64,000 nucleotides of DNA from Mustelus asterias (taxonomy: Eukaryota), in the NCBI RefSeq assembly GCF_964213995.1, contig NW_027590578.1, forward strand, positions 62,001 to 126,000, given 5' to 3'. The notes beneath the pieces are model-generated. The model saw only the letters and a program-made list of their open reading frames with translations. It made no database searches and was not told the DNA's origin. Position 1 is the stretch's first letter. The number at the start of each line of letters is the position of its first letter. The translations under genes and the position numbers were made by a program. Positions 6,245 through 54,325 of the stretch are shown in pieces.

Positions 6245-7591
6245 TCACTTGTGAACTCGCTGGTGTCTCAACAGGATGGATAAAAGAGTGAATCCCTTCC
6301 CACACTGAGAGCAGGTGAACGGCCTCTCCCCAGTGTGAATTCGCTGGTGTCGCTCCAGGTTGGACAAATGATTAAATCCCTTCCCACACTGAGAGCAGGT
6401 GAAGGGCCACTCACTGGTGTGAACTCGCTGGTGTCTCAACAGGTGGGATGACAGAATGAATCCCTTCCCACAGTCAGAGCAGATGAATGGTCTCTCCCCA
6501 GTGTGAATTCGCTGGTGGGTCTGCATGCTGGAAGAATCACTGAATCCTTTCCCACAATGAGAGCAGGTGAACGGCTTCTCTCCGGTGTGAACTCGCTGGT
6601 GTCTTAACAGGTTGCATAAAAGAGTGAATCCCCTCCCACACTGAGAGCAGGTGAACGGCCTCTCCCCAGTGTGAACTCGCTGGTGTCTCTCCAGGTTGGA
6701 CAAATGATTAAATCCCTTCCCACACTGAGAGCAGGTGAAGGGCCACTCCCTGGTGTGAACTCGCTGGTGTCTCAACAGGTGGGATGACAGAATGAATCCC
6801 TTCCCACAGTCAGAGCAGATGAATGGTCTCTCCCCAGTGTGAACTCGCTGGTGGGTCTGCATGCTGGAAGAATCACTGAATCCTTTCCCACAATGAGAGC
6901 AGGTGAACAGCCTCTCCCCTGTGTGAACTCGCTGGTGTCTCAACAGGTGGGATGACAGAATGAATCCCTTCCCACAGTCAGAGCAGATGAATGGTCTCTC
7001 CCCAGTGTGAATTCGCTGGTGTGTTTGCAGGTTGGATGAATCACTGAATCGCTTCCCACATTGAGAACAGCTGAATGGTCTCTCCCCAGTGTGAACTCGC
7101 TGGTGTCTCCGCAGAGTGGATGACTGAGTGAATCCCTTCCCACACTGAGAGCAGATGAATGGTCTCTCCCCAGTGTGAAATCGCTGGTGTGTCTGAAGGT
7201 TGGATGAATCACTGAATCGCTTCCCACATTGAGAACAGATGAATGGTCTCTCCCCAGTGTGAACTCGCTGGTGTGTCTGAAGGTTGAATGAGTTACTGAA
7301 TCCTTTACCACACTGAGAGCAGATGAATGGCCTCTCCCCTGTGTGAACTTGCTTGTGTCTCAACAGGTGGGATGACAGAGTGAATCCCTTCCCACACTGA
7401 GAGCAAGTGAATGGCCTCTCTCCAGTGTGAACTTGCTGGTGTCTCTGCAGAGTGGTTGAGTGAGTGAATCCCTTCCCACACTGAGAGCAGATGAATGGCC
7501 TCTCTCCAGTGTGAATGCGCCTATGGTTTTCCAGCTCTGATGGAGCTTTGAATGTCTTCTCACAGTCCCCACACTTCCACGGTTTCTTCAT
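6245..7591 (-). CDS. C2H2 zinc-finger protein, 16 fingers (ZNF-B), no effector domain seen
   Basis: 448-aa ORF of CxxC...HxxxH units with TGERPF linkers. Family acceptor at 7896-7897. Putative exon-1 donor GTGAGT at 8506. Confidence 0.92.
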
Positions 7592-8160
7592 GTTTTAGGT
7601 CCCGCTGTATCAGTCCAGGTCAGTTTAACAGCTGAAGCCTCATCCACACAACAAACACATGTACAGTCTGTCCCCGCTATGAATGGTGTGATGGTTTTTC
7701 AGCCTCTGTAACTGGTTAATATTCTTTCCACAGTTAGTGCACTGGAACACTCTCACTTGGGTGAGACTGGGCAAACATTCCTCCTTCTAGATTCAAAGAC
7801 CGATGATATTCAGGTCCCAAGGAATCGACTGACTCTGTCAAATCTAGAACGTCACGTCTGAGATTTCTGTCTGTAAATGCTCCCGTTGCAATATCCTGTA
7901 AATGTAGTTTACAAATGCCATCACGGTCAGTACAGGATAGAAATTCAGAACTAACAATTCTATTTTCCTCTCTCATTCCCCAAAAGCTGTAAATCTCCAT
8001 CCCACACACACTCCCTCCATTCTCACTCTGCTGAATCTAATATTCACCCTCCCAATTCTCCTGAAGGTGCTAATTCAGGCTGATCGACAGATCCATGTTC
8101 ACTGCTTCCTGTCCTGGACACAGTTGAAAATCTCCCTGTGGGCTGCCAGACAGATATACT

Positions 8161-8639: not shown

Positions 8640-9210
8640 CGGACTCTGATTGGCTGGAGGACCAGCGCCCATCCGGTCCTCCACGCGTTGCCATTGGTCA
8701 ATCTCCCGCATGTCGACAATAAGGGGGCGGAACCCGAGCCCACGTGGGGGTGGGCGGGGCTTTGACCGCCAGCCGCGCGGAGCTGGTGTCCAATCCGCAG
8801 TGTCTTGTCTCTGTAACCAGTGATATTGCTGCCAATGGGACACTGTGTGCTGAGTCATTGTGACGGCACAATGGAGCCCTGCCTGAATCAGCCAATAACA
8901 ATCACTCTGCTCTGCGGTGACGTCCTTGGATCCCAGTGCGCGGACCCGGGAGCCCCGCCCCCACCCATTGTTCCCCTCCCCCTTGCACCTCCTCCAGCCA
9001 AGGTTTCCAGGCAACCGGCTGGCCGCTCCGGCCAGAGCGAGAAGCCGTTCGGTGATCTCCCCCTCCCCTGGACTGCGCATGTCCAAGGGAGAGGGAAAGC
9101 TGCGCATGTGCAGGGGAGAGCCCGCCCCCCCCTGACCTTCATGTTGAGGTCTTGACCAATGGGAAGAATTGGAGGACCGGAAGGACTCTGGTCCTCCAGC
9201 CAATCAGAGC
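8640..9210. promoter_or_regulatory. Bidirectional CpG-island promoter between ZNF-B and ZNF-C
   Basis: CpG-rich. Mirror-image paired CCAAT boxes at both ends (8645-8701 and 9152-9209), GC boxes, and TGCGCATG (NRF1-like) motifs at ~9074 and ~9101. Confidence 0.75.
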
Positions 9211-9349
9211 ACCTCCATTGTCTGACTGCGGAAGTTGGACAATGAACTTGTTCAGCTGCTCATTCCTGCCCAGCAAAGCTGCTGCTGCTTCTCTCTGAAT
9301 GAAGATTGAGCTTAAGACGGACTCAAACTCCCTCCTGTCGCCTACATCT
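9210..9349 (+). other. Putative 5' exon of ZNF-C (donor GTGAGT at 9350)
   Basis: Inverted paralogue of 8507-8640, with a conserved catct|gtgagtaaaacac donor in both copies. Confidence 0.55.
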
Positions 9350-9722
9350 GTGAGTAAAACACTTTCTTTTCTCCCCCTTTCCATTTCTTTTCTCATTCTG
9401 GGGGAAATTGGGGACTTGCAGCAACTGATCACGAGAAATAGAAGCAGGAGAGGTCACCGGGCCCGTCAAGCGACCCTGCCACTCAGTACAATCATGGCTG
9501 ATCAATGCCGGCCTCCTTTTGTGAGCCATTTCCCCATCGCCCTCTTTTCCTCAATCTGTCAAATATTTATCCACCTCCATTTTAAATATTTCTAATGATT
9601 CAGCCTCTACCATGCTTTGGAGCAGCGAATTCCAGAGGTTCACCACCCTCTGCGAGAAGGAATTTCTCCGCACCTCAGTTTTAAATGACTGGCCCTTTAA
9701 CTTGTAGCTTGTTCGAGACTCT

Positions 9723-10046
9723 TTTTTTTAATACTTTTCCAAATCAATCAAATCAAATCCAATTCAGAATCGCAACAAGTTGAGACATTTCAGATCCAGG
9801 CTGACTAGACAGGGCAAGCGACCAAACCACCCTGTCCTGGGCCTGATCTACATGAGCCAAGCTGATTGGAGAAGGGGGAGGTTCCTCCTCCAAGACTTGG
9901 GCTCATTTGCATCTTAGCCAAAAGGCCGAGATGCCGCTTTTAAAAATTGCTTCATGTGAAACACATGAAGCTTCAGTGTAACCTAATGACCTCAACCAAG
10001 TGCAGGCGATCCATACTACACTTGATCTTAGCCAAAAGGCCGAGAA
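9723..10046 (-). mobile_element. U2 snRNA-headed, poly(A)-tailed short retroelement (SINEU-like or Keno/Utopia derivative)
   Basis: 10046-10013 matches U2 nt 6-39 (TTCTCGGCCTTTTGGCTAAGATCAAGTGTAGTAT). Second U2 piece (nt 7-27) at 9931-9911. A-tail at ~9723-9729. TSD ACTCT(T) within a CR1 3' fragment. Confidence 0.75.
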
Positions 10047-10104
10047 CTCTTCCATTCGTGAAAATATCTCACCACCTACCCTATCAGGCTCCCTCAGGAT
10101 CTCA

Positions 10105-10608: not shown

Positions 10609-11239
10609 ATATGTTTGAAAAATGTCATCCTCACTCTTCTAAACTCCAAGGAATACAGACCCAGACTATTTAGCCTCTCTAGATAGGACAACTCTATTTG
10701 TTATGACCTAGGTGTCCAGGACAGGAAGCAGTGAGCATGGATCTGTCATTCATCCTGAATCAGCTCCATCAGGAGTGTTGGGTGGCTGAATGTTAGATAC
10801 AGCAGCGTGAGAATGGAGGGACAATGTGTGGGATGGAGATTTACAGATTTTCATTAATGACAGAGGAAAGGATGTTCCCATAGAAGTGAGAATTGTCTGT
10901 TCTGACTGTGATGCTTTTTGTAAATTGTTTTTACAGGATATCAGAAGAGGAGGAATCACAGACAGAAATCTCAAACGTCACATCTCGATCTGACAGAGTC
11001 ACGATCTGTCGGCTTCAAAAGATTTCAAACATCAGTGTGATTGGAAAAGCACCGAGACACACACACACACCCGAGTGAGAGTGTTCCAGTGAACTGACTG
11101 TGGAAAGAGCTTCAACCAGTTACACAGCCTGAAGAAATATCACACCATTCACAAAAAAGAGCAACTGTACATGTGTTGTGTGTGTGGATGAAGCTTCAAC
11201 TGATCGTCCAACCTGGAGAGACACAAGGACACCAGCACC

Positions 11240-12169
11240 ATGGGGAAACCATGGAAATGTGGGGACTGTGGGAAGGAATTCAGGTTTTCGTCACAACTGG
11301 AAATTCATCAGCGCAGTCACACTGGGGAGAAGCCATTCACCTGCGCTGAGTGTGGGAAGGGATTCACTCGGCTATCCTTCCTACAGTCCCACAAGCGAGT
11401 TCACACTGGGGAGAGGCCGTTCACCTGCTCTCAGTGTGGGAAGGGATTCAGTGATTCATCCTCCCGGCGGAGACACCAGCGGGTTCACACCGGGGAGAAA
11501 CCGTTCACCTGCTCGCAGTGTGGGAAGCAATTCCGTGATTCATCCCATCTGTGGAGACACCGGCGAGTTCACAGCGGGGAGAGGCCGTTCACCTGCTCTG
11601 TGTGTGGGAAGGCATTCACTGATCCATCAACCCTGCAGAGACACCAGCAAGTTCATACTGGGCAGAAGCCGTTTATCTGCTCCCAGTGTGGGAAGGGATT
11701 CCCCCTCTCATCCCACCTGCTGACACACCAGAGAGTTCACACTGGGGAGAGGCCGTTCACCTGCTCTGTGTGTGGGAAGGGATTCACCATGTCGGCCCAC
11801 CTATTGAGACATCAGCGAGTTCACACTGGGGAGAGGCCATTCTCCTGCTCTCAGTGTGGGAAGGGATTCAGTGATTCGTCTGCTCTGCAAATACACCAGC
11901 GCGTTCACACTGGGGAGAGACCATTCACCTGCTTTCAATGTGGGAAGGGATTCACTCAGTTATCCAACCTGCAGATACACCAGCGAATCCACACTGGGGA
12001 GAGACCGTTCACCTGCTCTCACTGTGGGAAGACCTTCTCTCGGCTTTTCAACCTGCAGACACACCAGCGAATCCACACTGGAGAGAAACCGTTCACCTGC
12101 TCTCAGTGTGGGAAGAGATTCAGTGATTCATCCTCCCTGCGGAAACACTGGCGAGTTCACACAGAGTAG
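11240..12169 (+). CDS. C2H2 zinc-finger protein, 11 fingers (ZNF-C)
   Basis: 309-aa tandem C2H2 ORF. Acceptor ttttacag|GATATCAG at 10937. A degenerate 12th finger follows the TAG stop (12170-12250). Confidence 0.92.
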   Translation: MGKPWKCGDCGKEFRFSSQLEIHQRSHTGEKPFTCAECGKGFTRLSFLQSHKRVHTGERPFTCSQCGKGFSDSSSRRRHQRVHTGEKPFTCSQCGKQFRDSSHLWRHRRVHSGERPFTCSVCGKAFTDPSTLQRHQQVHTGQKPFICSQCGKGFPLSSHLLTHQRVHTGERPFTCSVCGKGFTMSAHLLRHQRVHTGERPFSCSQCGKGFSDSSALQIHQRVHTGERPFTCFQCGKGFTQLSNLQIHQRIHTGERPFTCSHCGKTFSRLFNLQTHQRIHTGEKPFTCSQCGKRFSDSSSLRKHWRVHTE

Positions 12170-20447: not shown

Positions 20448-20752
20448 TTACCCCTAGTTCTGGACTTCCCTACTATTGGCAACATTCTTTCTGAATCTAC
20501 TCTGTCTAATCCTGTTCGAATTTTATAAACTTTTTCCGAGTGCCAGTCCCACAAATTGCCAGAATCATTCGGCTCAATTTCTACCTTTGTCTTTTTGTGT
20601 GTTCTCTGTCACTCCCTTTTTTCTGTTTTTACTCTATTTCACAGGACATCAGAAAGGGAGGATTTGCAGCGGGGGAAACTCAAACCCATCATCTCAACAG
20701 GATCTGACAGTCGTCCAGTTTTTCTTAACCCGAATACCTTTGGATTTTGAGC

Positions 20753-21622
20753 ATGGAAGGAGAGAGCACAGTCCAGAGTGGGGGGAAACTGCACGCGTGC
20801 TCTGTGTGTGGGCGGGGCTTCAGCCAATCACATGACATCTTGAGCCACAAGTGCAGTCACAAGGAGGCGAAACCGTGGAAATGTGGGGATTGTGGGAAGG
20901 AATTTAATTATCCAGTTGAGCTGGAAACTCACCGGCGCAGTCACACCGGGGAGAGACCATTCACCTGCTTCACGTGTGGGAAGGGATTCAGTCTGTCGTG
21001 CAACTTGTTGGCTCACCAGCGAGTTCACTCCGAAGAGAGACCCTTCAAATGCCCTGTCTGCGGGAAGTGCTATAAAAGTTCCAACGAACTGATGCGCCAT
21101 CAACGTATTCACACTGACGAGAGACCATTCAGGTGCTCTCAGTGCGGCACTGGGTTCAGGCAATTATCTGACCTCACTGTGCACCAACGAATCCACACTG
21201 GAGAGAGTCCATTCATCTGCACGTACTGTGGAAAGGGATTTACTCGGTCTTCACGCTTGCTGACACATCAGCGAGTCCACACCGGGGAGAGACCATTCTC
21301 CTGCTCCCAGTGTGGGAAGGGATTCACTAATTCGTCCAGCCTGCTGAAACACCGGCGAGTTCACACCGGGGAGAGGCCGTTCACCTGCTCCGTGTGTGGG
21401 AAGGGATTCAGTGGGTCGACAGACCTGCTGGAACACCAGCGGGTTCACACTGGGGAGAGGCCGTTCACCTGCTCTACATGCGGGAAGCAGTTCACTCAGT
21501 CGTCAACCCTGCTGACACACCAGCGAGTTCACACTGGGGAGAAGCCATTTGCCTGCTCTGTGTGTGGGAAGGGATTTGCTCATTCATCCACCCTGCTGAG
21601 ACACCAGCAAGTTCACAAGTAA
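20753..21622 (+). CDS. C2H2 zinc-finger protein, 10 fingers (ZNF-D)
   Basis: ATG at 20753 (MEGESTVQ...), tandem C2H2 to ...HQQVHK*. Acceptor tttcacag|GACATCAG at 20645. Confidence 0.9.
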
Positions 21623-31080: not shown

Positions 31081-31360
31081 AGACCAAGTGGCGGGTTTCC
31101 TTCCCTGAAGGACATGAGTGAATGAGTTGGGTTGTGACAACGCACCAGTTTTAATGGTCACTTTTTCCTAGTGCTGGCCTCAATTTCATGACCTGTGTTT
31201 GTGTTTTTTGTGGATTCTCCCTCATTCCCTTTTTTTCTATTTTAAATCAATTTCACAGGGTTTTAGAACAGGAGGATTTGCGGTCAGGAAACTCACTCTG
31301 AGCATTACATCAAGATCTGACAGTCACTCATTTTAACCAGAATATCATTGGATTTTGAAG

Positions 31361-32290
31361 ATGGAAGGAAAAAGCACCATTCACAGTGGGGAGAAACCGT
31401 GCACATGTTCTGTGTGTGGACTCGGCTTCAACCAATCATCTGACCTGTTAGAACATAAATGCAGTCACAACAAGGAAAAATCATGGAAATGTGGGGACTG
31501 CGGGAAGGGATTCAACTACCAATCTAAGCTGGAGACTCATCGACGCATTCACACCGGGGAGAGGCCATTCACCTGCCCTGTGTGTGGGAAGGGATTCACT
31601 CAGTCATCAACGCTGCGGACACACCAGCGAGTTCACACTGGGGAGAGGCCGTTCACCTGCTCAGAGTGTGGGAAAGCATTCATTAATTCTACCAATCTGT
31701 TGACACATCGGCGATTTCACACCGGGGAGCGGTTCTTCACCTGCTCTGTGTGTGGGAAGGGATTCACTCGGTCATCCGACCTGCTGACGCACCAGCGTAT
31801 TCACACTGGGGAGAGGCCGTTCACCTGCTCTGAGTGTGGGAAGGGATTCACTCTGTCATCCGACCTGCTAACGCACCAGCGAGTTCACACTGGGGAGAGG
31901 CCTTTTACCTGCTCCATGTGCGGGAAGGGATTCACTCGGTCCTCCCACCTACAGAGACACCAGCAAGTTCACACTGATGAGAGACCTTTTAAATGCTCGG
32001 ACTGTGGGCAGTGCTTTAAAAGTTCCTGGGACCTGGTGTCCCATCGCCGTACTCACACTGACGAGAGACCGTTCAGATGCTCTCACTGCGGGACTGGGTT
32101 CAGGCGATCGTCTGACCTCATTACACACCAGCGCAGTCACACTGGGGAGAGGCCGTTCACCTGCTCCAAGTGTGGGAAGAGATTCACTCAGTCATCCAAC
32201 CTGTTGAGACACCAGCGAGCTCACACTGGGGAGAGACCATTCACTTTGTCCATGTTTGGGAACGGATTCACTCAACAGCCACCCTCCTAA
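31361..32290 (+). CDS. C2H2 zinc-finger protein, 10 intact fingers plus degenerate 11th (ZNF-F)
   Basis: ATG at 31361 (MEGKSTIH...), acceptor at 31259. The stop falls at the junction with a SINE insertion. Confidence 0.9.
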
Positions 32291-45413: not shown

Positions 45414-47800
45414 AAGGACCATCTGGTCCTTTAGGGAATAAAATCTGCCGTCCTGGCCTGATCAGGCCTCCATGGTTTTGGGAGGAAGCCGCAGCACTCG
45501 GAGGAAACCCACGCAGACCTCCTGCAGTCTGGCCCACACGTTATTTATAGAATCATAAAATGATAGATTCACCACAGTGCAAGAGGAGGCCATTCAGCCC
45601 ATCGAGTTGGCGCCGGCTACAATCCCACCCAGACCCGATCCCCGTAACCACATTCATTTACCCTAGCTAGTCCCGCTGACACTAAGGGACAATTTAGCAT
45701 GGACAATCCACCTAACCTGTACATCTTTGGACACTAAGGGACAATTTAACATGGCCAATCCACCTAACCTGTACATCTTTGGACACTAAGGGACAATTTA
45801 ACATGGACAATCCACCTAACCTGTACATCTTTGGACACTAAGGGACAATTTAACATGGCCAATCCACCAAATATTCACATCTGTGGAGTGTGGGAGGAAA
45901 CCGGAGCACCCGGAGGAAACCCATGCAGACATGGGAAGAACAAGCAGACTCCGCACAGACAGTCACCCAAAGCTAAAGTAAAGTTAAAGTTTATTTATTA
46001 GTCACAAGTAGGCTTACATTAACACTGCATTGAAGTTAGGCTGGATTTGAACCTGGGTCCCTGGTGCTATGAGGCAGTAGTGCTAACCTCTGTGCCACTG
46101 GGCGAGTAACCCAGAGACCCAGGGTGATGCTCTGGGGATCCGGGTTCGAATCCCACCACAGCAAATGGTGAAATTTAAATTCAATAAGAATCTGGAATTC
46201 AAAGTCTAATGATGACCATGAAACCATTGTCGATTGTGGTGAAAAACCCATCTGGTTCACCATCTGGTCCTTTAGGGAAGGAAATCTGCCATCCTCACCT
46301 GGTCTGGCCTTCATGTTATTTATAGAATCATAGAATCGCAACAGGGCAGAAGGAGGCCATTCAGCCCATTGAGTCAGCGCCAACCACAATCCCACCCAGG
46401 TGCTATTCCCATAACCACATTCATTAACCCTAGCTAGTCCTGCTGACATGAAGGGGCAATTTAGCATGGCCAATGCACCTAACCCGCAAAGATTTGGACA
46501 CTAAGGGGCAATTTAGCATGGCCTATTCACATAACCAGTATGTCCTTGGACAATAAGGGACAATTTAGCATGGTCAATCCTTCTAACCTACACATCTTTG
46601 GACATTAAGAGTCAATTTAACATGCCGAATCCACCTATCCAGCGCATCTTTAGACACGAAGGGGCAACTTAGCATGGGCAATCCCCCTAAACTATACATC
46701 ATTGCACACTAAGAGACAATTTAGTGTGGTCAATCCACCTAACCTACACATCTTTGGACACTAAGGGGAAATTTAGCATGGCCAATCCACCAAACCTGTA
46801 CATCTTTGGACATTAAGGGGCAATTTAGCATGGCTAATCACCTCACCTGCAGATCTTTGGACACTAAGGGACAATTAAGCATGGCCAATCCACCTAACCA
46901 GCATATCTTTGGACACTAAGGGGCAATTTAGCATGGCCAATCCACCTAACCAGCATATCTTTGGACACTAAGGAGCAATTTACCATGGGCAATCCACCTA
47001 ACCAGCACATCTTGGGACACGAAAGGGCAATTTTAGCATGGCCAATCCACCTAACCAGCTCATCTTTGGACACTAAGGGACAATTTATCATGGCCAATCC
47101 ATCTAACCAGCATGTCTTTGGACACAAAGAGACAATTTAGCATGGCCAAACCCCGTAAACTACACATGTTTGGACACTAACGGCCAGTTTATCATGGTGA
47201 ATCCCCTTAACCTGCACATCCTGTGACTATCAGGGGCAATTTAGCATGGCCATTCCACCTAACGTGCACATCTTTGGACATTAAGGGACAAATTAGCATG
47301 GCCAATCCCCCTAACCTGCACATCTTTGGACACTAAGGGGCAATTTAGCATGGCCAATCCATCTAGTCTACATGTCTTTGGAAACTAAGGGGCAATTTAG
47401 CATGGCCATTCCACCCAACATGCATATCTTTGGACATTAGTGGGAAATTTAGCATGGCTAATCCCCTTAACCTGCACATCTTGTGACACTAAGGGGCAAC
47501 TGAGCACGGCCAATACACCTAACCTGCACATCTTTGAACACTAAAGATCAATTTAACATGACTAATCCACCTAACCGGCACATCTGTGGAGTGTGGGAGG
47601 AAACGGCAGCACTCAGAGGAAACCCACGCAGACCTCACACGGTCTGGCCCACACGTTATTTATAGAATCACAGAATGATAGAATCCCTACAGTGCAGAAG
47701 GAGGCCATTCAGCCCATCGAGTCGGCACCGACCACGATCCCACGCATGCCCTATTCCCGTAACCACATTCATTTACCCTAGCTAGTTCCGCTGACACTAA

Positions 47801-48108
47801 CGTTCCTTCAGAAGGAACTCTACTAAATGCATCTAATGAAAATACAACAAAACTTACTCCAACTTATAAATGAAAGAAAGGGTTTAATAAAGAAACGTCA
47901 TTGCTCCAAACTTGGGGCCTCACCCTGGGCCACTCCAAGCTCCCCACAATTCAACACAGTTCCTTATTTATCGTGAATCAGCTGGTCAGCTGACTATTAC
48001 ATCACTGTATGATTGGTTCCATGGCTTACTGGGTCAGCTGGCCATTAAATCTTGTTCCCATTGGTCATATTACATCCAATCAAAGTTGTCACCGGATACA
48101 TTCTAACA
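47801..48108 (-). mobile_element. Solo LTR-like insertion (308 bp) with 5-bp TSD ACTAA
   Basis: TSD at 47796-47800 and 48109-48113. Ends (C)GTT...AACA. Confidence 0.65.
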
Positions 48109-48711
48109 ACTAAGGGGCAATTTAGCATGGCCAATCCACCTAACCCGCACATCTTTGGACACTAAGGGGCAATTTAGCATGGCCAATCCCTCTAATCTGC
48201 CTCTATTTGGACACACGTTATTAATAGAATCACAGAATGATAGAATCCCTACAGTGCAGAAGGAGGCCATTCAGCCCATCGAGTCGGCACCGACCACGAT
48301 CCCACGCATGCCCTATTCCCGTAACCACATTCATTTACCCTAGCAAGTCCCACTGACACTAAGGGGCAATTTATCATGGCCAATCCACCTAACCTGCACA
48401 TCTTTGGACACTAAGGGGCAATTTATCATGGCCAATCCACCTAACCTGCACATCTTTGGACACTAAGGGGCAATTTATCATGGCCAATCCACCTAACCTG
48501 CACATCTTTGGACACTAAGGGGCAATTTATCATGGCCAATCCACCTAACCTGCACATCTTTGGACACTAAGGGGCAATTTATCATGGCCAATCCACCTAA
48601 CCTGCACATCTTTGGACACTAAGGGGCAATTTATCATGGCCAATCCACCTAGCCTGCACATCTTTGGACACTAAGGGGCAATTTAGCATGGCCAATCCAC
48701 CTAACCAGCAC

Positions 48712-49218
48712 ATAGAGTCATAGACGTTTACGGAATGGAAACAGGCCCTTCGGCCCAACTTGTCCATGCCGCCCTTTTTTTTAAAAACCCCTAAGCTAAT
48801 CCCAATTGCCCGCGTTTGGCCCATATCCCTCTATACCCATCTTACCCATGTAACTGTCTAAATGCTTTTTAAAAGATAAAATTGTACCCGCCTCTACTAC
48901 TACCTCTGGCAGCTCGTTCCAGACACTCACCACCCTCTGTGAGAAAAAATTGCCCCTCTGGACACTTTTGTATCTCTCCCCTCTCACCTTAAACCTATGA
49001 CCTCTAGTTTTAGACTCCCCTACCTTTGGGAAAAGATATTGACTATCTCGCTGATCTGTGCCCCTCATTATTTTATAGACCTCTATAAGATCACCCCTCA
49101 GCCTCCTACGCTCCAGAGAAAAAAGTCCCTGTCTATCCAGCCTCCCCTTATAACTCAATCCATCAAGTCCCGGTAGCATCCTAGTAAATCTTTTCTGCAC
49201 TCTTTCTAGTTTGATAAT
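48712..49218 (-). mobile_element. CR1 LINE 3' fragment
   Basis: IIKLERVQKRFTRMLPGL...GNWD*. Confidence 0.85.
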
Positions 49219-50861
49219 GGGGGGCGGGGGGGGGGGGAGGGGGGCGGCAGGAACCTTCTGTAGAAAAGCACAGCCTCCTCTGGGGAGGGGGACCTGAATT
49301 CGGAGTGCGGAAGGGCGGGATTCCCTGGGGCGGGGAGTGTGGGGAGCACGGAGCGGGTGGAACCCTGCAGTCGGGATGACGTGACCTCCCGGGGGGGAGG
49401 GGGGTGGGGGGCACCTCGTGGGGGGCACCATGAGGTCTCAGCACTGGGGAGTCACTTCAAGGTGCGAGTGTGCCAGAGGATCGAGCTCTCGCTGGGATTT
49501 CTGTGTCTCATCTTTGGACACTAAGGGACAATTTAGCATGGTCAATCCTTCTAACCTACACATCTTTGGACATTAAGAGTCAATTTAACATGCCCAATCC
49601 ACCTAACCAGCGCATCTTTAGACACGAAGGGGCAACTTAGCATGGGCAATCCCCCTAAACTATACATCATTGCACAGTAAGAGACAATTTAGTGTGGTCA
49701 ATCCAACTAACCTACACATCTTTGGACACTAGGGGACAGTTTAGCATGGCCAATCCACCTAACCTACACATCTTTGGACACCAAGGGGCAATTTAGCATG
49801 GTGAATCCCCCTAACCTGCACATCTTTGGACATTAAGTGGTAATTTAACATGGCCAATCCATCTAACCTGTACATCTTTGGACATTAAGGGGCAATTTAG
49901 CATGGCTAATCCATCTAACATGCACATCTTTGGGCATTAAAGGGCAATTTAGCATGGCCAATCACCTCACCTGCAGATCTTTGGACACTAAGGGACAATT
50001 AAGCTTGGCCAATCCAACTAACCTACACATCTTGGGACACTAAGGGGCAATTTACCATGGCCAATCCACCTAACCAGCATATCTTTGGACACTAAGGGGC
50101 AATTTAGCATGGCCAATCCACCTAATGAGCATATATTTAGCCATGAAGGGACAATTGAATCTGGCTAATCCACCTAATCTGCACATTGTTGGAACTAAGG
50201 GACAATTTAACATGACTAATCCACCTAATCTTCACTTCTGTGGAGTGTGGGAGGAAACCGCAGCACTCAGAGGAAACTCACGCAGACCTCACGCAGTCTG
50301 GCCCACACGTCATTTATAGAATAATAAAATGATAAAAAACCCTACAGTGCAGAAGGAGGCCATTCGGCCCATCGAGTCGGCACCGACCACAATCCCACCC
50401 ATGCCCTATTCCCGTAACCACATTCATTTACCCTAGCTCGTCCCCCTGACACTAAGGGGCAATTTAGCATGGCCAATCCACCTAACCTGCACATCTTTGG
50501 ACACTAAGGGGACAATTTAGCATGGCCAATCCACCTAACCTGCACATCTTTGGACACGAAGAGACAATTTAGCATGGCCAATCCACCGTAAACTATACAT
50601 CTTTGGACACTAAGAGACAATTTAGTGTGGTCAATCCAATTAACCTACAGATCTTTGGACACTACAGAAGAATCTAGTCATGATCTGGAATTCAAAGTCT
50701 AATGATGACCATGAAACCATTGTCGATTGTGGTGAAAAACCCATCTGGTTCACCATCTGGTCCTTTAGGGAAGGAAATCTGCCGTCCTCACCTGGTTCTG
50801 AGGGTGCCAGGGAGAGAATTTCACTGTCTCAGCCTCTCTCTCTCTGTCTCTCTCTCTCTGC

Positions 50862-50892
<31 letters not shown>

Positions 50893-51594
50893 AGCCTCTT
50901 TCTCTATTCAAGACATTCTTGAAATTAAAACACTGCTCTCATACACAATTAAATGTCAGATATCTCTCACTGTCTCGCCCTGTCTGTCTCTCTCTGCTTC
51001 TCTCCCCCTATCTCTCTCCTCCTGTCTCTCTCTCTCTCTATCTCAACCTTTCTCTGTCTCTCAGCCTCTCTCTCTCTGTCATTTTAAAAATTCACCAAAT
51101 TAAAGAACACTCTACACTGCGATCTTACACTGGGTAAAAACACTGGGTAAAAGCTCTTTCTCTCTCCCTGTGTCTCTCTGTGTCTCTGTCTCTCTCACTC
51201 TCTGCCTCCCNNNNNNNNNNNNNNNNNNNNNNNNNNNNNNNNNNNNNNNNNNNNNNNNNNNNNNNNNNNNNNNNNNNNNNNNNNNNNNNNNNNNNNNNNN
51301 NNNNNNNNNNNNNNNNNNNNNNNNNNNNNNNNNNNNNNNNNNNNNNNNNNNNNNNNNNNNNNNNNNNCTCTCTGTGCTGCTCCCCCCAGTCTCACAGTTG
51401 CAGCGTGCTAAGTGTTTCTTTACCCAGTGTTATTGATGTGGGAGTCCTGTGCTGGGGTGTGTGTGTGGGTGGGTGGGTTTCACTAAGGGGCTGTAAGCTC
51501 TCTTTCTAGGAAGGGGAAGTGGTGAGGCAGATGTGTGAGGGAGAGTGTGTGTAAGCGGCGGATGTGAAACTTCCCCCAGCAGCAGGCAGCGCAG

Positions 51595-51668
51595 AGTTTT
51601 TGTTCTGGTGTATCACTGTGGGGATATACAGTGGGGCCACAGTCGCTGAATCTCTCTGTACAATAAAC
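51595..51668 (+). other. D-like gene segment, copy 1 (coding 51621-51637, GGGATATACAGTGGGGC); RSS spacers defective
   Basis: 5' side: AGTTTTTGT, 10 nt, CACTGTG. 3' side: CACAGTC, 15 nt, ACAATAAAC. Open in all three frames (GIYSG/GYTVG/DIQWG). Confidence 0.65.
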
Positions 51669-51864
51669 CTCCCAGCACTGTGTCTGAAGCCTCCTCGAAA
51701 CCATCCTCCAAATCCTGCCCTGCTCCCCCTCCCTCCCCTCTCTCTCTCTCCAATATTCGTATAACCCGGGTTTATAAACTGGGGGGGTGAGATTCAGCAC
51801 TGGGTCCCCCCTGTCTCTCCCCGGCCTTGCCCCAGTGATAACACACTCCCTGATAGAAGGAGGG

Positions 51865-52311
51865 GGTTTGTGTCAGGCTCACTGTCAATATAGAAACCCT
51901 ACAGTGCAGAAAGAGGCCATTCGGCCCATCGAGTCTGCACCGACCACAATCCCACCCAGGGCCTACTCCCATATCCCTACATATTTACCCATTAATCCCT
52001 CTAACCTACGCATCTCAGGACACTAAGGGGCAATTTTAGCATGGCCAATGCACCCTAACCCGCACATCTTTGGACTGTGGGAGGAAACCGGAGCACCCGG
52101 AGGAAACCCACACACAGACACGGGGAGAATGTGCAAACTCCACACAGACAGTGACCCGAGCCGGGAATCGAACCCAGGTCCCTGGAGCTGTGAAGCAGCA
52201 GTGCTAACCCACTGTGCCACCGTGCCGCCAATGTGGCAATGCTGCCACTCGATTGGCACAATCTTTCTGGGAGGTGGCACCCAGACTGACTGTCACCCTT
52301 CCCGAGCGAGT
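51865..52311 (+). pseudogene. J-like pseudo-segment a (coding ~52236-52305) with its 12-RSS split by an HE1 SINE
   Basis: GGTTTGTGT, 12 nt, CAAT|SINE|CAATGTG. Coding ...IFLGGGT(+1)RLTVT..., degenerate donor GCGAGT. Confidence 0.65.
51890..52228 (-). mobile_element. HE1-type V-SINE with TSD CAAT
   Basis: Full-length SINE with CAAT at 51886-51889 and 52229-52232. Confidence 0.85.
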
Positions 52312-52490
52312 GGAGAGAGAGAGAGAGAGAGAGAGAGACATTCACATTGAGCTGACGTGAGGATGTGTTTGGGGGAGGGGGGGGGGTGGATTTAAGATAT
52401 TTCCCCCAGCCTCAACACCCACCCCCCCACACCCCTCCACCCCCCCCCCCCACCCCACCCCCGCTGACACACACACACACAACCCCCCCC

Positions 52491-52526
<36 letters not shown>

Positions 52527-52839
52527 TCTGGAACCGTGACTGCGAATAGTTAGAAAGTTCACCCAGCTCCACACTCACTGTGACCCTTCCAACATCTGTC
52601 ACAGGGGCTGAAGAATTAAATGGGATGATTCTGTCTAGAGACACAATTCAGGAATTTCACACAAGGTCCCTGAATATTTCCTCCAGTTTTGTGGGGAGAG
52701 TGAGGGGGGGCGGGGAATGTGGGACAGAAGGGGTGCAGAATTCCCCAATCTCTTACTGAAGGGGATTGGGAGCGAGCTGTGTCAAATGTGAATTGGTTGA
52801 GAGTTTAACACCAGGGGGTTAAGGAGCTTGGGGAAGGGG

Positions 52840-52871
<32 letters not shown>

Positions 52872-53059
52872 GGGCAAGCATTTCAGATGGTATCTGAACT
52901 TGGGAATCAAACCCAGATGTCCTCCCCACCTCTCCATTGGAAAGTTCCCCCCCCCCCCCCATTGCCACTCCCCCCAGACACACAGATCATTCTCAGACCC
53001 CCCTCCCATTATCTTTCCAAGGGGTCAGCGTTTGAAAGGTTGTCAGGGGTGAGGGTTTG

Positions 53060-54325
53060 CTAAATTGTCTCTTAGCATCCAGAGATGTGCGGGTTAGGTG
53101 GATTGGCCATGCTAAATTGTCCCTTAGTGTCCAAAGATGTGCAGGTTAGGTGGATTGGCCATGCTAAATTGCCCCTTAGTGTCCAAAGATGTGTAGGTTA
53201 GGTGGATTGGCCATGCTAAATTGTCCCTTAGTGTCCAAAGATGTGTAGGTTAGGTGGATTGGCCATGCTAAATTGTCCCTGAGTGTCCAAAGATGTGCAG
53301 GTTCGGTGGATTGGCCATGCTAAATTGTCCCTGAGTGTCCAAAGATGTGCAGGTTAGGTGGATTGGTCATGCTAAATTGTCCCTGAGTGTCCAAAGATGT
53401 GTAGGTTAGGTGGATTGGCCATGCTAAATTGTCCCTTAGTGTCCAAAGATGTGCAGGTTCGGTGGATTGGCCATGCTAAATTGTACCTTGGTGTCCAAGG
53501 ATGTGCAGGTTCGGTGGATTGGCCATGCTAAATTGTACCTTGGTGTCCAAAGATGTGCAGGTTACGTGGATTGGCCATGCTAAATTGTCCCTTAGTGTCC
53601 AAAGATGTGTAGGTTACGTGGATTGGCCATGCTAAATTGTCCCTTAGTGTCCAAAGATGTGTAGGTTAGGTGGATTGGCCATGCTAAATTGTCCCTTAGT
53701 GTCCAAAGATGTGTAGGTTAGGTGGATTGGCCATGTTAAATTGTCCCTTAGTGTCCAAAGATGTGTAGGTTAGATGGATTGGCCATGCTAAATTGTCCCT
53801 TAGTGTCCAAAGATGTGTAGGTTAGGTGGATTGGCCATGTTAAATTGTCCCTTAGTGTCCAAAGATGTGTAGGTTAGATGGATTGGCCATGCTAAATTGT
53901 CCCTTAGTGTCCAAAGATGTGTAGGTTAGGTGGATTGGCCATGTTAAATTGTCCCTTAGTGTCCAAAGATGTGTAGGTTCGGTGGATTGGCCATGCTAAA
54001 TTGTCCCTTAGTGTCCAAATATGTGCAGGTTAGGTGGATTGGCCATGCTAAATTGTCCCTTAGTGTCCAAAGATGTGTAGGTTAGGTGGATTGGCCATGT
54101 TAAATTGTCCCTTAGTGTCCAAAGATGTACAGGTTAGGTGGATTGGCCATGCTAAATTGTCCCTTAGTGTCCAAAGATGTGTAGGTTAGGTGGATTGGCC
54201 ATGTTAAATTGTCCCTTAGTGTCCAAAGATGTGTAGGTTCGGTGGATTGGCCATGCTAAATTGTCCCTTAGTGTCCAAAGATGTACAGGTTAGGTGGATT
54301 GGCCATGCTAATTGACCCTTAGTGT
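53060..54325 (+). repeat. Homogeneous 52-bp V-domain satellite, ~24 copies
   Basis: (gtccaaagatgtg(c/t)aggttaggtggattggccatgctaaattgtcccttagt)n. Confidence 0.92.

Follow-up and report, generated by a model that had tools for sequence, protein, structure and literature searches.

We consider it likely that the insertion described here, which lies in a 64,000-nt stretch of Mustelus asterias DNA (the window), is a dispersed copy of a young, non-coding retroposon family headed by nt 1-39 of U2 snRNA; the sources are likely a small number of copies residing in U2 genes, with the U2 promoter likely driving their transcription and a Keno-type LINE likely carrying out the copying. The closest described elements, SINEU-1, -2 and -3, are reported only in crocodilians in the available part of their description, which leaves their transcription as an open question, a puzzle arising because snRNA promoters lie upstream of the copied region (Kojima 2015, PMC4494074). 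A literature search whose scope stopped short of Repbase Reports, Dfam and subscription journals found no snRNA-headed SINE outside crocodilians, cartilaginous fishes included; the term "snRNA" does not occur in the text of a paper on elephant-shark SINEs, and Repbase lists SINEU as a class. The family reported here extends the snRNA-headed design beyond crocodilians and ties it to the Keno site, and its named loci, in which the element stands directly behind U2 upstream DNA, together with dispersed copies that carry U2-locus flanks, make the question of SINEU transcription directly testable.

The features of the window copy are collected in Table 1. A first-pass annotation of this DNA had listed, on the minus strand, a U2 segment, a perfect hairpin, a second U2 piece, an octamer, nested stems and an A-tail, and these were all recovered where it had placed them. 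The U2 head gives an Rfam match of 40.4 bits (E 7.5e-6), below the Rfam gathering score of 46 for U2; this copy is 5'-truncated by five bases, full copies starting at U2 nt 1. The second U2 piece is a 21-nt exact direct repeat of part of the head (two matches occurred in none of 100 shuffles) that extends with lower similarity to about nt 33, giving 28 nt at 92.9% with one inserted base and one substitution. These two changes created the octamer, which, judged from its sequence, is probably a by-product of U2 decay. The presence of two U2 pieces bears out part of the earlier description of the element as dimeric, but what follows one piece shows no relationship to what follows the other (the score was equalled by 129 of 300 shuffles), and a true dimer of two homologous monomers, like that of Alu, was rejected. 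At its 3' end the copy has a T/G-rich stretch followed by eight A's. Direct repeats flank it as had been claimed, but at only 5-6 bp they are weak taken alone; long target site duplications (TSDs) are found in other family members. Its 326-nt RNA has a predicted fold of -127.7 kcal/mol (z = -7.08; none of 100 shuffles as stable). The 64-kb window contains no second copy of the element, and no empty site for it was found among the repeats in the window.

Table 1. Features of the window copy, in window coordinates.
Feature	Positions	Strand	Remarks
Whole insertion	9718..10051	-	Dispersed and probably inert; belongs to the most abundant subfamily
TSD, 5' copy, 5-6 bp	10046..10051	-	Last base overlaps U2 nt 6; from sequence
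U2 head, nt 6-39 (nt 1-39 in full-length family members)	10013..10046	-	3' limit coincides with the insertion site of Keno and Utopia
"Anti-head", imperfect reverse complement of U2 nt 11-36	9980..10005	-	Predicted 22-pair interrupted hairpin with the head
Perfect 10-bp hairpin	9949..9971	-	Shortened in two subfamilies
Single-stranded AAUUUUU between hairpins	9942..9948	-	Sm-site-like, without closing G; present in 104/109 copies
Second U2 piece, closed into extended hairpin	9909..9934	-	nt 7-27 exact at 9911-9931, similarity to nt 33
Octamer ATGCAAAT	9905..9912	-	From altered U2 nt 26-33; in 98/109 copies; overlaps two stems
Long interrupted hairpin	9852..9906	-	Loop subfamily-variable
Second long hairpin, variable loop	9793..9848	-	Site of the sole recurrent two-sided change
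3' 7-bp stem-loop	9769..9786	-	99.4% of cells paired in family; two substitutions damage the window copy's version
Tail region	9731..9817	-	Weak co-terminal alignment to last ~90 nt of Keno-type LINE 3' UTR; without the LINE's AATAAA
A-tail, 8 A	9723..9730	-	
TSD, 3' copy	9717..9722	-	

The multi-copy family proposed in the first-pass annotation is present in abundance, and a one-off chimera is ruled out by at least 4,642 copies with shared structure. This figure is the number of exact occurrences of a 27-nt body motif in the animal's own 3.68-Gb genome (control, 0), and is a lower bound in that only exact matches were counted; the window copy itself, owing to two substitutions, is not among them. 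A separate search of the genome yielded 2,904 first-look candidates, and among the matches listed 43 of 44 are near full length at 90-100% identity. We sampled 121 insertion sites from 120 loci, comprising the 30 best matches and 90 loci taken in order along one contig. TSDs of 8-30 bp were present at 57 sites, as against four of 121 mismatched control pairs (score of at least 8). Judged by the start of the BLAST alignment, 85 of the 121 sites begin at U2 nt 1-8, 28 of these at nt 1, and the remainder are 5'-truncated; unrelated DNA lies upstream of 26 of the 28, and the flanks of the sampled copies appear mutually unrelated. The family, about 330 nt in length and A-tailed, comprises five or more subfamilies: 109 near-full copies fell into five groups with at least four members, each 2.6-4.0% from its own consensus, and some smaller groups, while dispersed copies differ from one another by a median of 2.5%. 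The window copy belongs to the largest group, and the closest relative in the sample differs from it by 1.9%. Some family members (four of eight U2 matches) exceed the Rfam gathering score for U2, and such copies will be mis-annotated as U2 genes.

A small fraction of the family resides in U2 genes. Junctions between the tail of the short element and U2 nt 38 number nine, with a tenth having a one-base deletion (L232), against a chance expectation of 8e-5, or of 0.01 if only sites with the target motif described below are available. Of these ten copies, five follow U2 upstream DNA and nt 1-39 without a gap, one of them in the main 1,833-bp array and the other four in a variant U2 type. Another two are in U2 loci, where they are preceded by duplicated U2 38-52 or 38-55; the remaining three are composites outside U2 genes. 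Duplications at the U2 insertions measure 18-21 bp. A search for U2 38-52 closely followed by the body returned one match, the permitted gap being too short for this to be informative. About 99.8% of family copies are not at the U2 site. When placed on a tree from which 21 best-match copies were left out, 12 U2-linked copies were scattered, requiring 11 changes, which indicates that they arose repeatedly, by repeated homing. The variant U2 gene type is identical to the main type at 169 of 192 positions (88%) and occurs in 448-bp tandem repeats and orphan loci (G000:C21:28.05-28.08 Mb, C14:62.23 Mb, C1:80.33 Mb and C8:80.29 Mb; L236, L004, L099 and L232), where most promoter-fused insertions are found. 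A further embedded locus is at G000:C24:43.06 Mb. A matrix for the proximal sequence element (PSE), for which 15 distinct regions upstream of U1 and U5 genes in the same genome were used, peaks at -61 of the main U2 type (score 10.1) and at -63 of the variant type (4.9), background maxima having a median of 2.7 and a 95th percentile of 8.7; the position is therefore right for both types and the score convincing for the main type only, 4.9 falling within background.

The U2 site is also occupied by a LINE. A search that covered A-tailed U2 junctions found an A-run joined to U2 nt 38-52 at 28 places in the genome, of which 23 belong to one LINE family (15 of them in a single tandem array of 8,035-bp units), four to the short element and one to neither. 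The LINE enters at U2 nt 37/38, the Keno site. Its ORF1 encodes ZCCHC3-type RNA-binding domains and a zinc knuckle, and its ORF2 an AP endonuclease, a reverse transcriptase (RT) and a zf-RVT domain; of three LINE copies examined within U2 arrays, two have a split ORF2. The LINE starts with a U2 head of its own, which comes after a 21-bp duplication of U2 38-58 and onto which the next segment folds back. In its target, domains and endonuclease type the LINE matches Keno, to whose lineage it is provisionally assigned on these features. The Utopia retrotransposons, named alongside Keno in the first-pass annotation, are not indicated, because the LINE at the A-tailed U2 junctions has an AP-type endonuclease and that of Utopia is restriction-like. 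Strict specificity for U2 was not observed: the LINE 3' end has 286 matches in the genome, mostly outside U2, with 23 U2 junctions, and one of the first 30 of the 286 ends lies at U2. Since the LINE is mostly dispersed, its target specificity is relaxed.

The large array, at G000:C24:44.81-44.94 Mb (L043-L057, L059, L060), contains at least 15 near-identical 8,035-bp units in tandem. In every unit an intact U2 gene is accompanied by a U2 fragment that a full-length Keno-type LINE, with an insertion splitting its own ORF2, has interrupted; this is a case of a LINE amplified as part of an snRNA array. At two further loci, L231 (G000:C7:35.96 Mb) and L237, the LINE itself lies directly behind U2 upstream DNA, and L231, a dispersed site, retains only 79 nt of that DNA, the PSE position included.

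Three observations tie the short element to this LINE, one of them, as weak support, being the co-terminal alignment of its tail with the LINE 3' UTR that is set out further below. Element and LINE both favour the target AG[C/T]|A, which was found at 19 of 57 short-element sites with a TSD (p 1e-12) and at four of 12 LINE sites (p 0.001), compared with 4.3% of background positions treated alike; the U2 site itself fits the motif. (The LINE sample was drawn from 30 loci, 12 of which ran off the locus edge and six of which had no scorable TSD.) In addition, four of the first 30 LINE ends stand in tandem with a short element under one duplicated target (L139, L149, L156, L163), the order at L149 being TSD, element, TSD, LINE piece, TSD, element, TSD. 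The short element thus likely depends on the Keno-type LINE for its copying, as far as sequence can indicate. The first-pass annotation had offered a SINEU-like family and a non-autonomous Keno derivative as alternatives; for a multi-copy, LINE-dependent element found at the Keno site, both describe parts of one thing.

We propose the following course of events. Insertion at U2 nt 37/38 is common to the LINE and the short element, and some insertions of the latter have the body fused seamlessly behind U2 upstream DNA and nt 1-39. Such 5' junctions would be formed by annealing of the U2 head to the target, in analogy with R2 (PMC3774820). RNA polymerase II would start at U2 +1, directed by the U2 PSE, and proceed through the body and a templated A-run, and the 26 nt after the head are predicted to fold back on it, which would keep the RNA from U2-like action in splicing. 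Priming by LINE ORF2p would take place on the internal A-run, as suggested by the element's want of the LINE's AATAAA, at AG[C/T]|A sites that resemble the U2 site. Nearly all products would land outside U2 genes, without a promoter, as dead ends; on the rare occasions when one returned to a U2 gene, a further source copy and a further subfamily would originate there. A stronger form of this proposal, on which we are evenly balanced, is that of an RNA parasite with two habitats, whose sources breed only in U2 genes and whose dispersed thousands are sterile spill-over; the head would be at once the transcription start, a homology arm for renewed fusion to another U2 promoter, and a hazard that is folded away, and some insertions would carry the PSE off as promoter-bearing outposts. 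The Sm-like site between the hairpins may, from its sequence, give the RNA access to the export and capping pathway of snRNAs and so bring it together with the LINE protein. If true, the two-habitat reading would explain the transcription of snRNA-headed SINEs and the repeated gain of new U2 heads.

Transcription of copies within U2 genes is indicated by dispersed copies that have both their own TSDs and flanks from a U2 locus. Within its own 13-bp TSD, L101 has U2 34-52 before the element with its A-run, and U2 38-58 with a new A-run after it; on this arrangement it is a retrocopy of the element inside a U2 transcript. L230 (16-bp TSD) carries a U2 head with 93 nt of U2 upstream DNA, the PSE included; L241 and L242, representing one event (17-bp TSD), a U2 head with 13 nt of upstream DNA; L240 is similar to these but without a clear TSD; and L100 (15-bp TSD) has U2 38-48 and a LINE end after its tail. 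We conclude that U2-embedded copies were transcribed and retroposed. On sequence comparison, the transduced flanks do not establish such copies as the makers of most of the family. U2-linked copies lie 1.2-7.3% from their nearest dispersed relative, none being identical; no exact master of the window copy's haplotype was found, and the two most divergent subfamilies include no U2-linked copy. Masters could be hidden in collapsed or polymorphic U2 arrays. The same observations can be read differently, with the same family and LINE partner but with transcripts arising mostly from dispersed loci, by host read-through or from PSE-carrying composites such as L230, and with the U2-embedded copies being mostly by-products of the enzyme's target preference. 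The overwhelming dispersal of the family, the want of an embedded exact master, the two subfamilies without a U2-linked member and the evident transportability of the PSE at L230 are all in keeping with this, and flanking promoters have been proposed for SINEU in the available part of that report (Kojima 2015, PMC4494074). We nevertheless regard it as unlikely: the 5' ends are concentrated at U2 nt 1-8 and have no non-U2 extension in common, and all extensions characterised consist of U2-locus DNA, in a genome-wide search that covered U2 flanks only.

Transcription from U2-embedded copies followed by LINE-directed copying also leaves room for different views of what the short element is. It might be a SIDE-like, internally deleted LINE of the Keno lineage, with 5' UTR joined to 3' UTR, and not a SINE with a body of separate origin, a view that departs from the preferred account over where the element came from and not over how it moves. 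A U2 head followed by a fold-back segment is common to LINE and element, and the tail aligns with the last ~90 nt of the LINE 3' UTR, co-terminally but weakly (the best score was reached in none of 200 shuffles, and 22 of 31 related LINE ends reached theirs in at most five of 200), with no significant BLAST match between tail and LINE. The resemblance is thus confined to weak similarity at the 3' end and, at the 5' end, to the U2 head and the fold-back design. Against such a derivation, BLAST comparison of the body with the 5.3-kb LINE unit gave nothing significant outside the U2 pieces (best E 1.6), and for about 200 nt of the body no source was recognised. We judge an origin by internal deletion improbable.

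Very little probability attaches to a promoter of the element's own, whether internal and served by RNA polymerase III (Pol III) or composed of the octamer and a hidden PSE acting on the next copy in a tandem array. The octamer is kept in most copies and in tandem arrays would lie about 200 nt upstream of the next head, an arrangement that invites the second form of this idea. It is nonetheless altered U2 sequence inside stems, and the element contains no PSE-like site above background (best score 1.6, against the background median of 2.7); with no PSE partner in the element, the octamer was rejected as a working promoter. No octamer occurs within 280 nt of either U2 type. Runs of 4-5 T's stop Pol III, and those at positions 15, 106 and 129 of the element would do so; no match to tRNA, 5S or 7SL RNA was found in it with Rfam.

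The RNA that would result from U2-directed transcription is predicted to be extensively structured. In 45 copies drawn from across the subfamilies, a nine-helix model of 88 pairs, derived from the same sequences, was 96.7% paired. The anti-head, comprising the 26 nt after the head, pairs with U2 nt 11-36 through 14 Watson-Crick and eight G-U pairs (97.6% of cells paired in the 45 copies), and head and anti-head together have a predicted stability of about -27 to -34 kcal/mol versus -8 to -10 for the head alone; the hairpin so formed is predicted to replace U2 stem I. The first-pass annotation had pointed to the branch-point-pairing GUAGUA, which is indeed present but is predicted to be masked, with 4-6 of its six bases paired in four subfamily consensuses; five of the six are predicted to be open in U2 itself. 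The element would thus provide an instance of a structured RNA that masks a spliceosomal recognition sequence. Pairing is preserved in 15 of 20 variants common to at least four copies but in only 31 of 90 that are rare (p 0.002), and variation is lower in paired columns than in unpaired ones (26/173 versus 47/128). The one recurrent two-sided change, in the second long hairpin, appears as G-C in 25, G-U in 11 and A-U in 8 of the 45 copies; two-sided covariation as a whole did not exceed that in shuffles (two pairs against 3.6 expected; score reached by 65 of 500). Selection on RNA structure is likely, on the strength of these models, though not proven. RNAalifold applied to all 109 copies returned a poor structure, probably through misalignment of variable loops.

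The AAUUUUU segment gives a 9-nt match to the Sm site of the genome's own U4, not above shuffles. When three subfamily consensuses were compared with U1, U2, U4 and U5 of the same genome, no U1, U4, U5 or further U2 pieces stood out in the body (36 comparisons, the best reached by four of 100 shuffles). That the family represents a host small RNA (a variant snRNA) with scattered retro-pseudogenes is scarcely credible: the layout of hairpin, AAUUUUU and hairpin is snRNA-like, the stems are conserved and some copies score as U2 in Rfam, but every copy found with a promoter interrupts a U2 gene at the target site of a retrotransposon, such copies are several percent apart from one another, the subfamilies are many, the tail is LINE-like and no dedicated gene array turned up.

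A family drawing on both U2 genes and a Keno-type LINE invites comparison with several known systems, each considered here from the available part of the source cited. The element fits the structural definition of SINEU, being likened to it by structure and not by body sequence (PMC4494074): its U2 head, length below 500 nt, lack of coding capacity, 3' A-tail, TSDs and multi-copy unit with shared structure are those of SINEU, as are the repeated U2 pieces, the internal T-runs, the absence of an internal promoter and the tandem copies around a TSD. The SINEU partner is of Tx1 type and itself has a U1 or U2 head (PMC4494074), as the LINE here has a U2 head; a partner of the Tx1 clade is a candidate here from the shared target motif and the co-insertions. 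SINEU differs in its preference for Mariner-N4_AMi, with no insertion into U2 genes and no LINE-like tail reported in that part of the account (PMC4494074), whereas the present element re-enters U2 genes, at the Keno site, where it is joined to U2 upstream DNA, and has a fold-back predicted to mask its head. Keno, of the Tx1 clade, shares with the partner LINE the U2 insertion point and an AP-type endonuclease (PMC4494074, PMC4640811), in contrast to which the short element is non-coding and the partner LINE mostly dispersed. Utopia uses the same U2 site, and its reptile members have 20-bp TSDs (PMC4640811), similar to the U2 duplications found here; it is its restriction-like endonuclease (PMC4640811) that sets it apart from the AP-type enzyme of the LINE at U2. 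By analogy, the element would work like an R2 SIDE moved to a gene for a Pol II-transcribed snRNA; R2 SIDEs are reported at rDNA sites, transcribed by Pol I (PMC3414825), whereas the short-element family has thousands of dispersed copies, and no ribozyme was found in it with Rfam.

Head-to-tail arrays of 2-4 copies belonging to different subfamilies are common, 16 of the 121 sites having been flagged, one of them a split alignment. In the array loci L003, L026, L069, L074, L082, L149 and L204 the copies are mostly separated by a TSD, with some direct joins. Eight arrays revealed no consistent age order, so that sequential re-insertion and template jumping in one event are not distinguishable. 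At L026 (1084-1488) the second U2 piece runs on as a full head and another whole element, which, from its sequence, is probably the product of recombination between two U2 pieces. Inverted junctions, in which a reversed head lies beside a forward copy or a LINE end, occur at L094 (~1170-1290) and L152 (1540-1911), as expected from twin priming.

The window copy sits in older repeat DNA inside a cluster of C2H2 zinc-finger genes, with reading frames of 10-16 fingers at 6248-7594 (minus strand) and at 11204-12166, 20729-21619 and 31337-32287 (plus strand). It lies in antisense orientation, with a GC-rich stretch that resembles a promoter (~8700-9250) on one side and the finger exon at 11204 on the other, and is probably in a zinc-finger gene intron, the splice sites having been assigned by eye. 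Its want of U2 upstream DNA and its damaged 3' stem-loop suggest that it is probably inert. The flank of L241 and L242 (C118, C158) resembles window positions 8890-8970, which places another family member in a paralogous zinc-finger promoter region. Elsewhere in the window, positions 45700-54300 contain a 52-bp unit repeated in arrays and related to a portion of a dispersed repeat of about 350 bp, which itself occurs at 1667-2016 and in about ten further copies.
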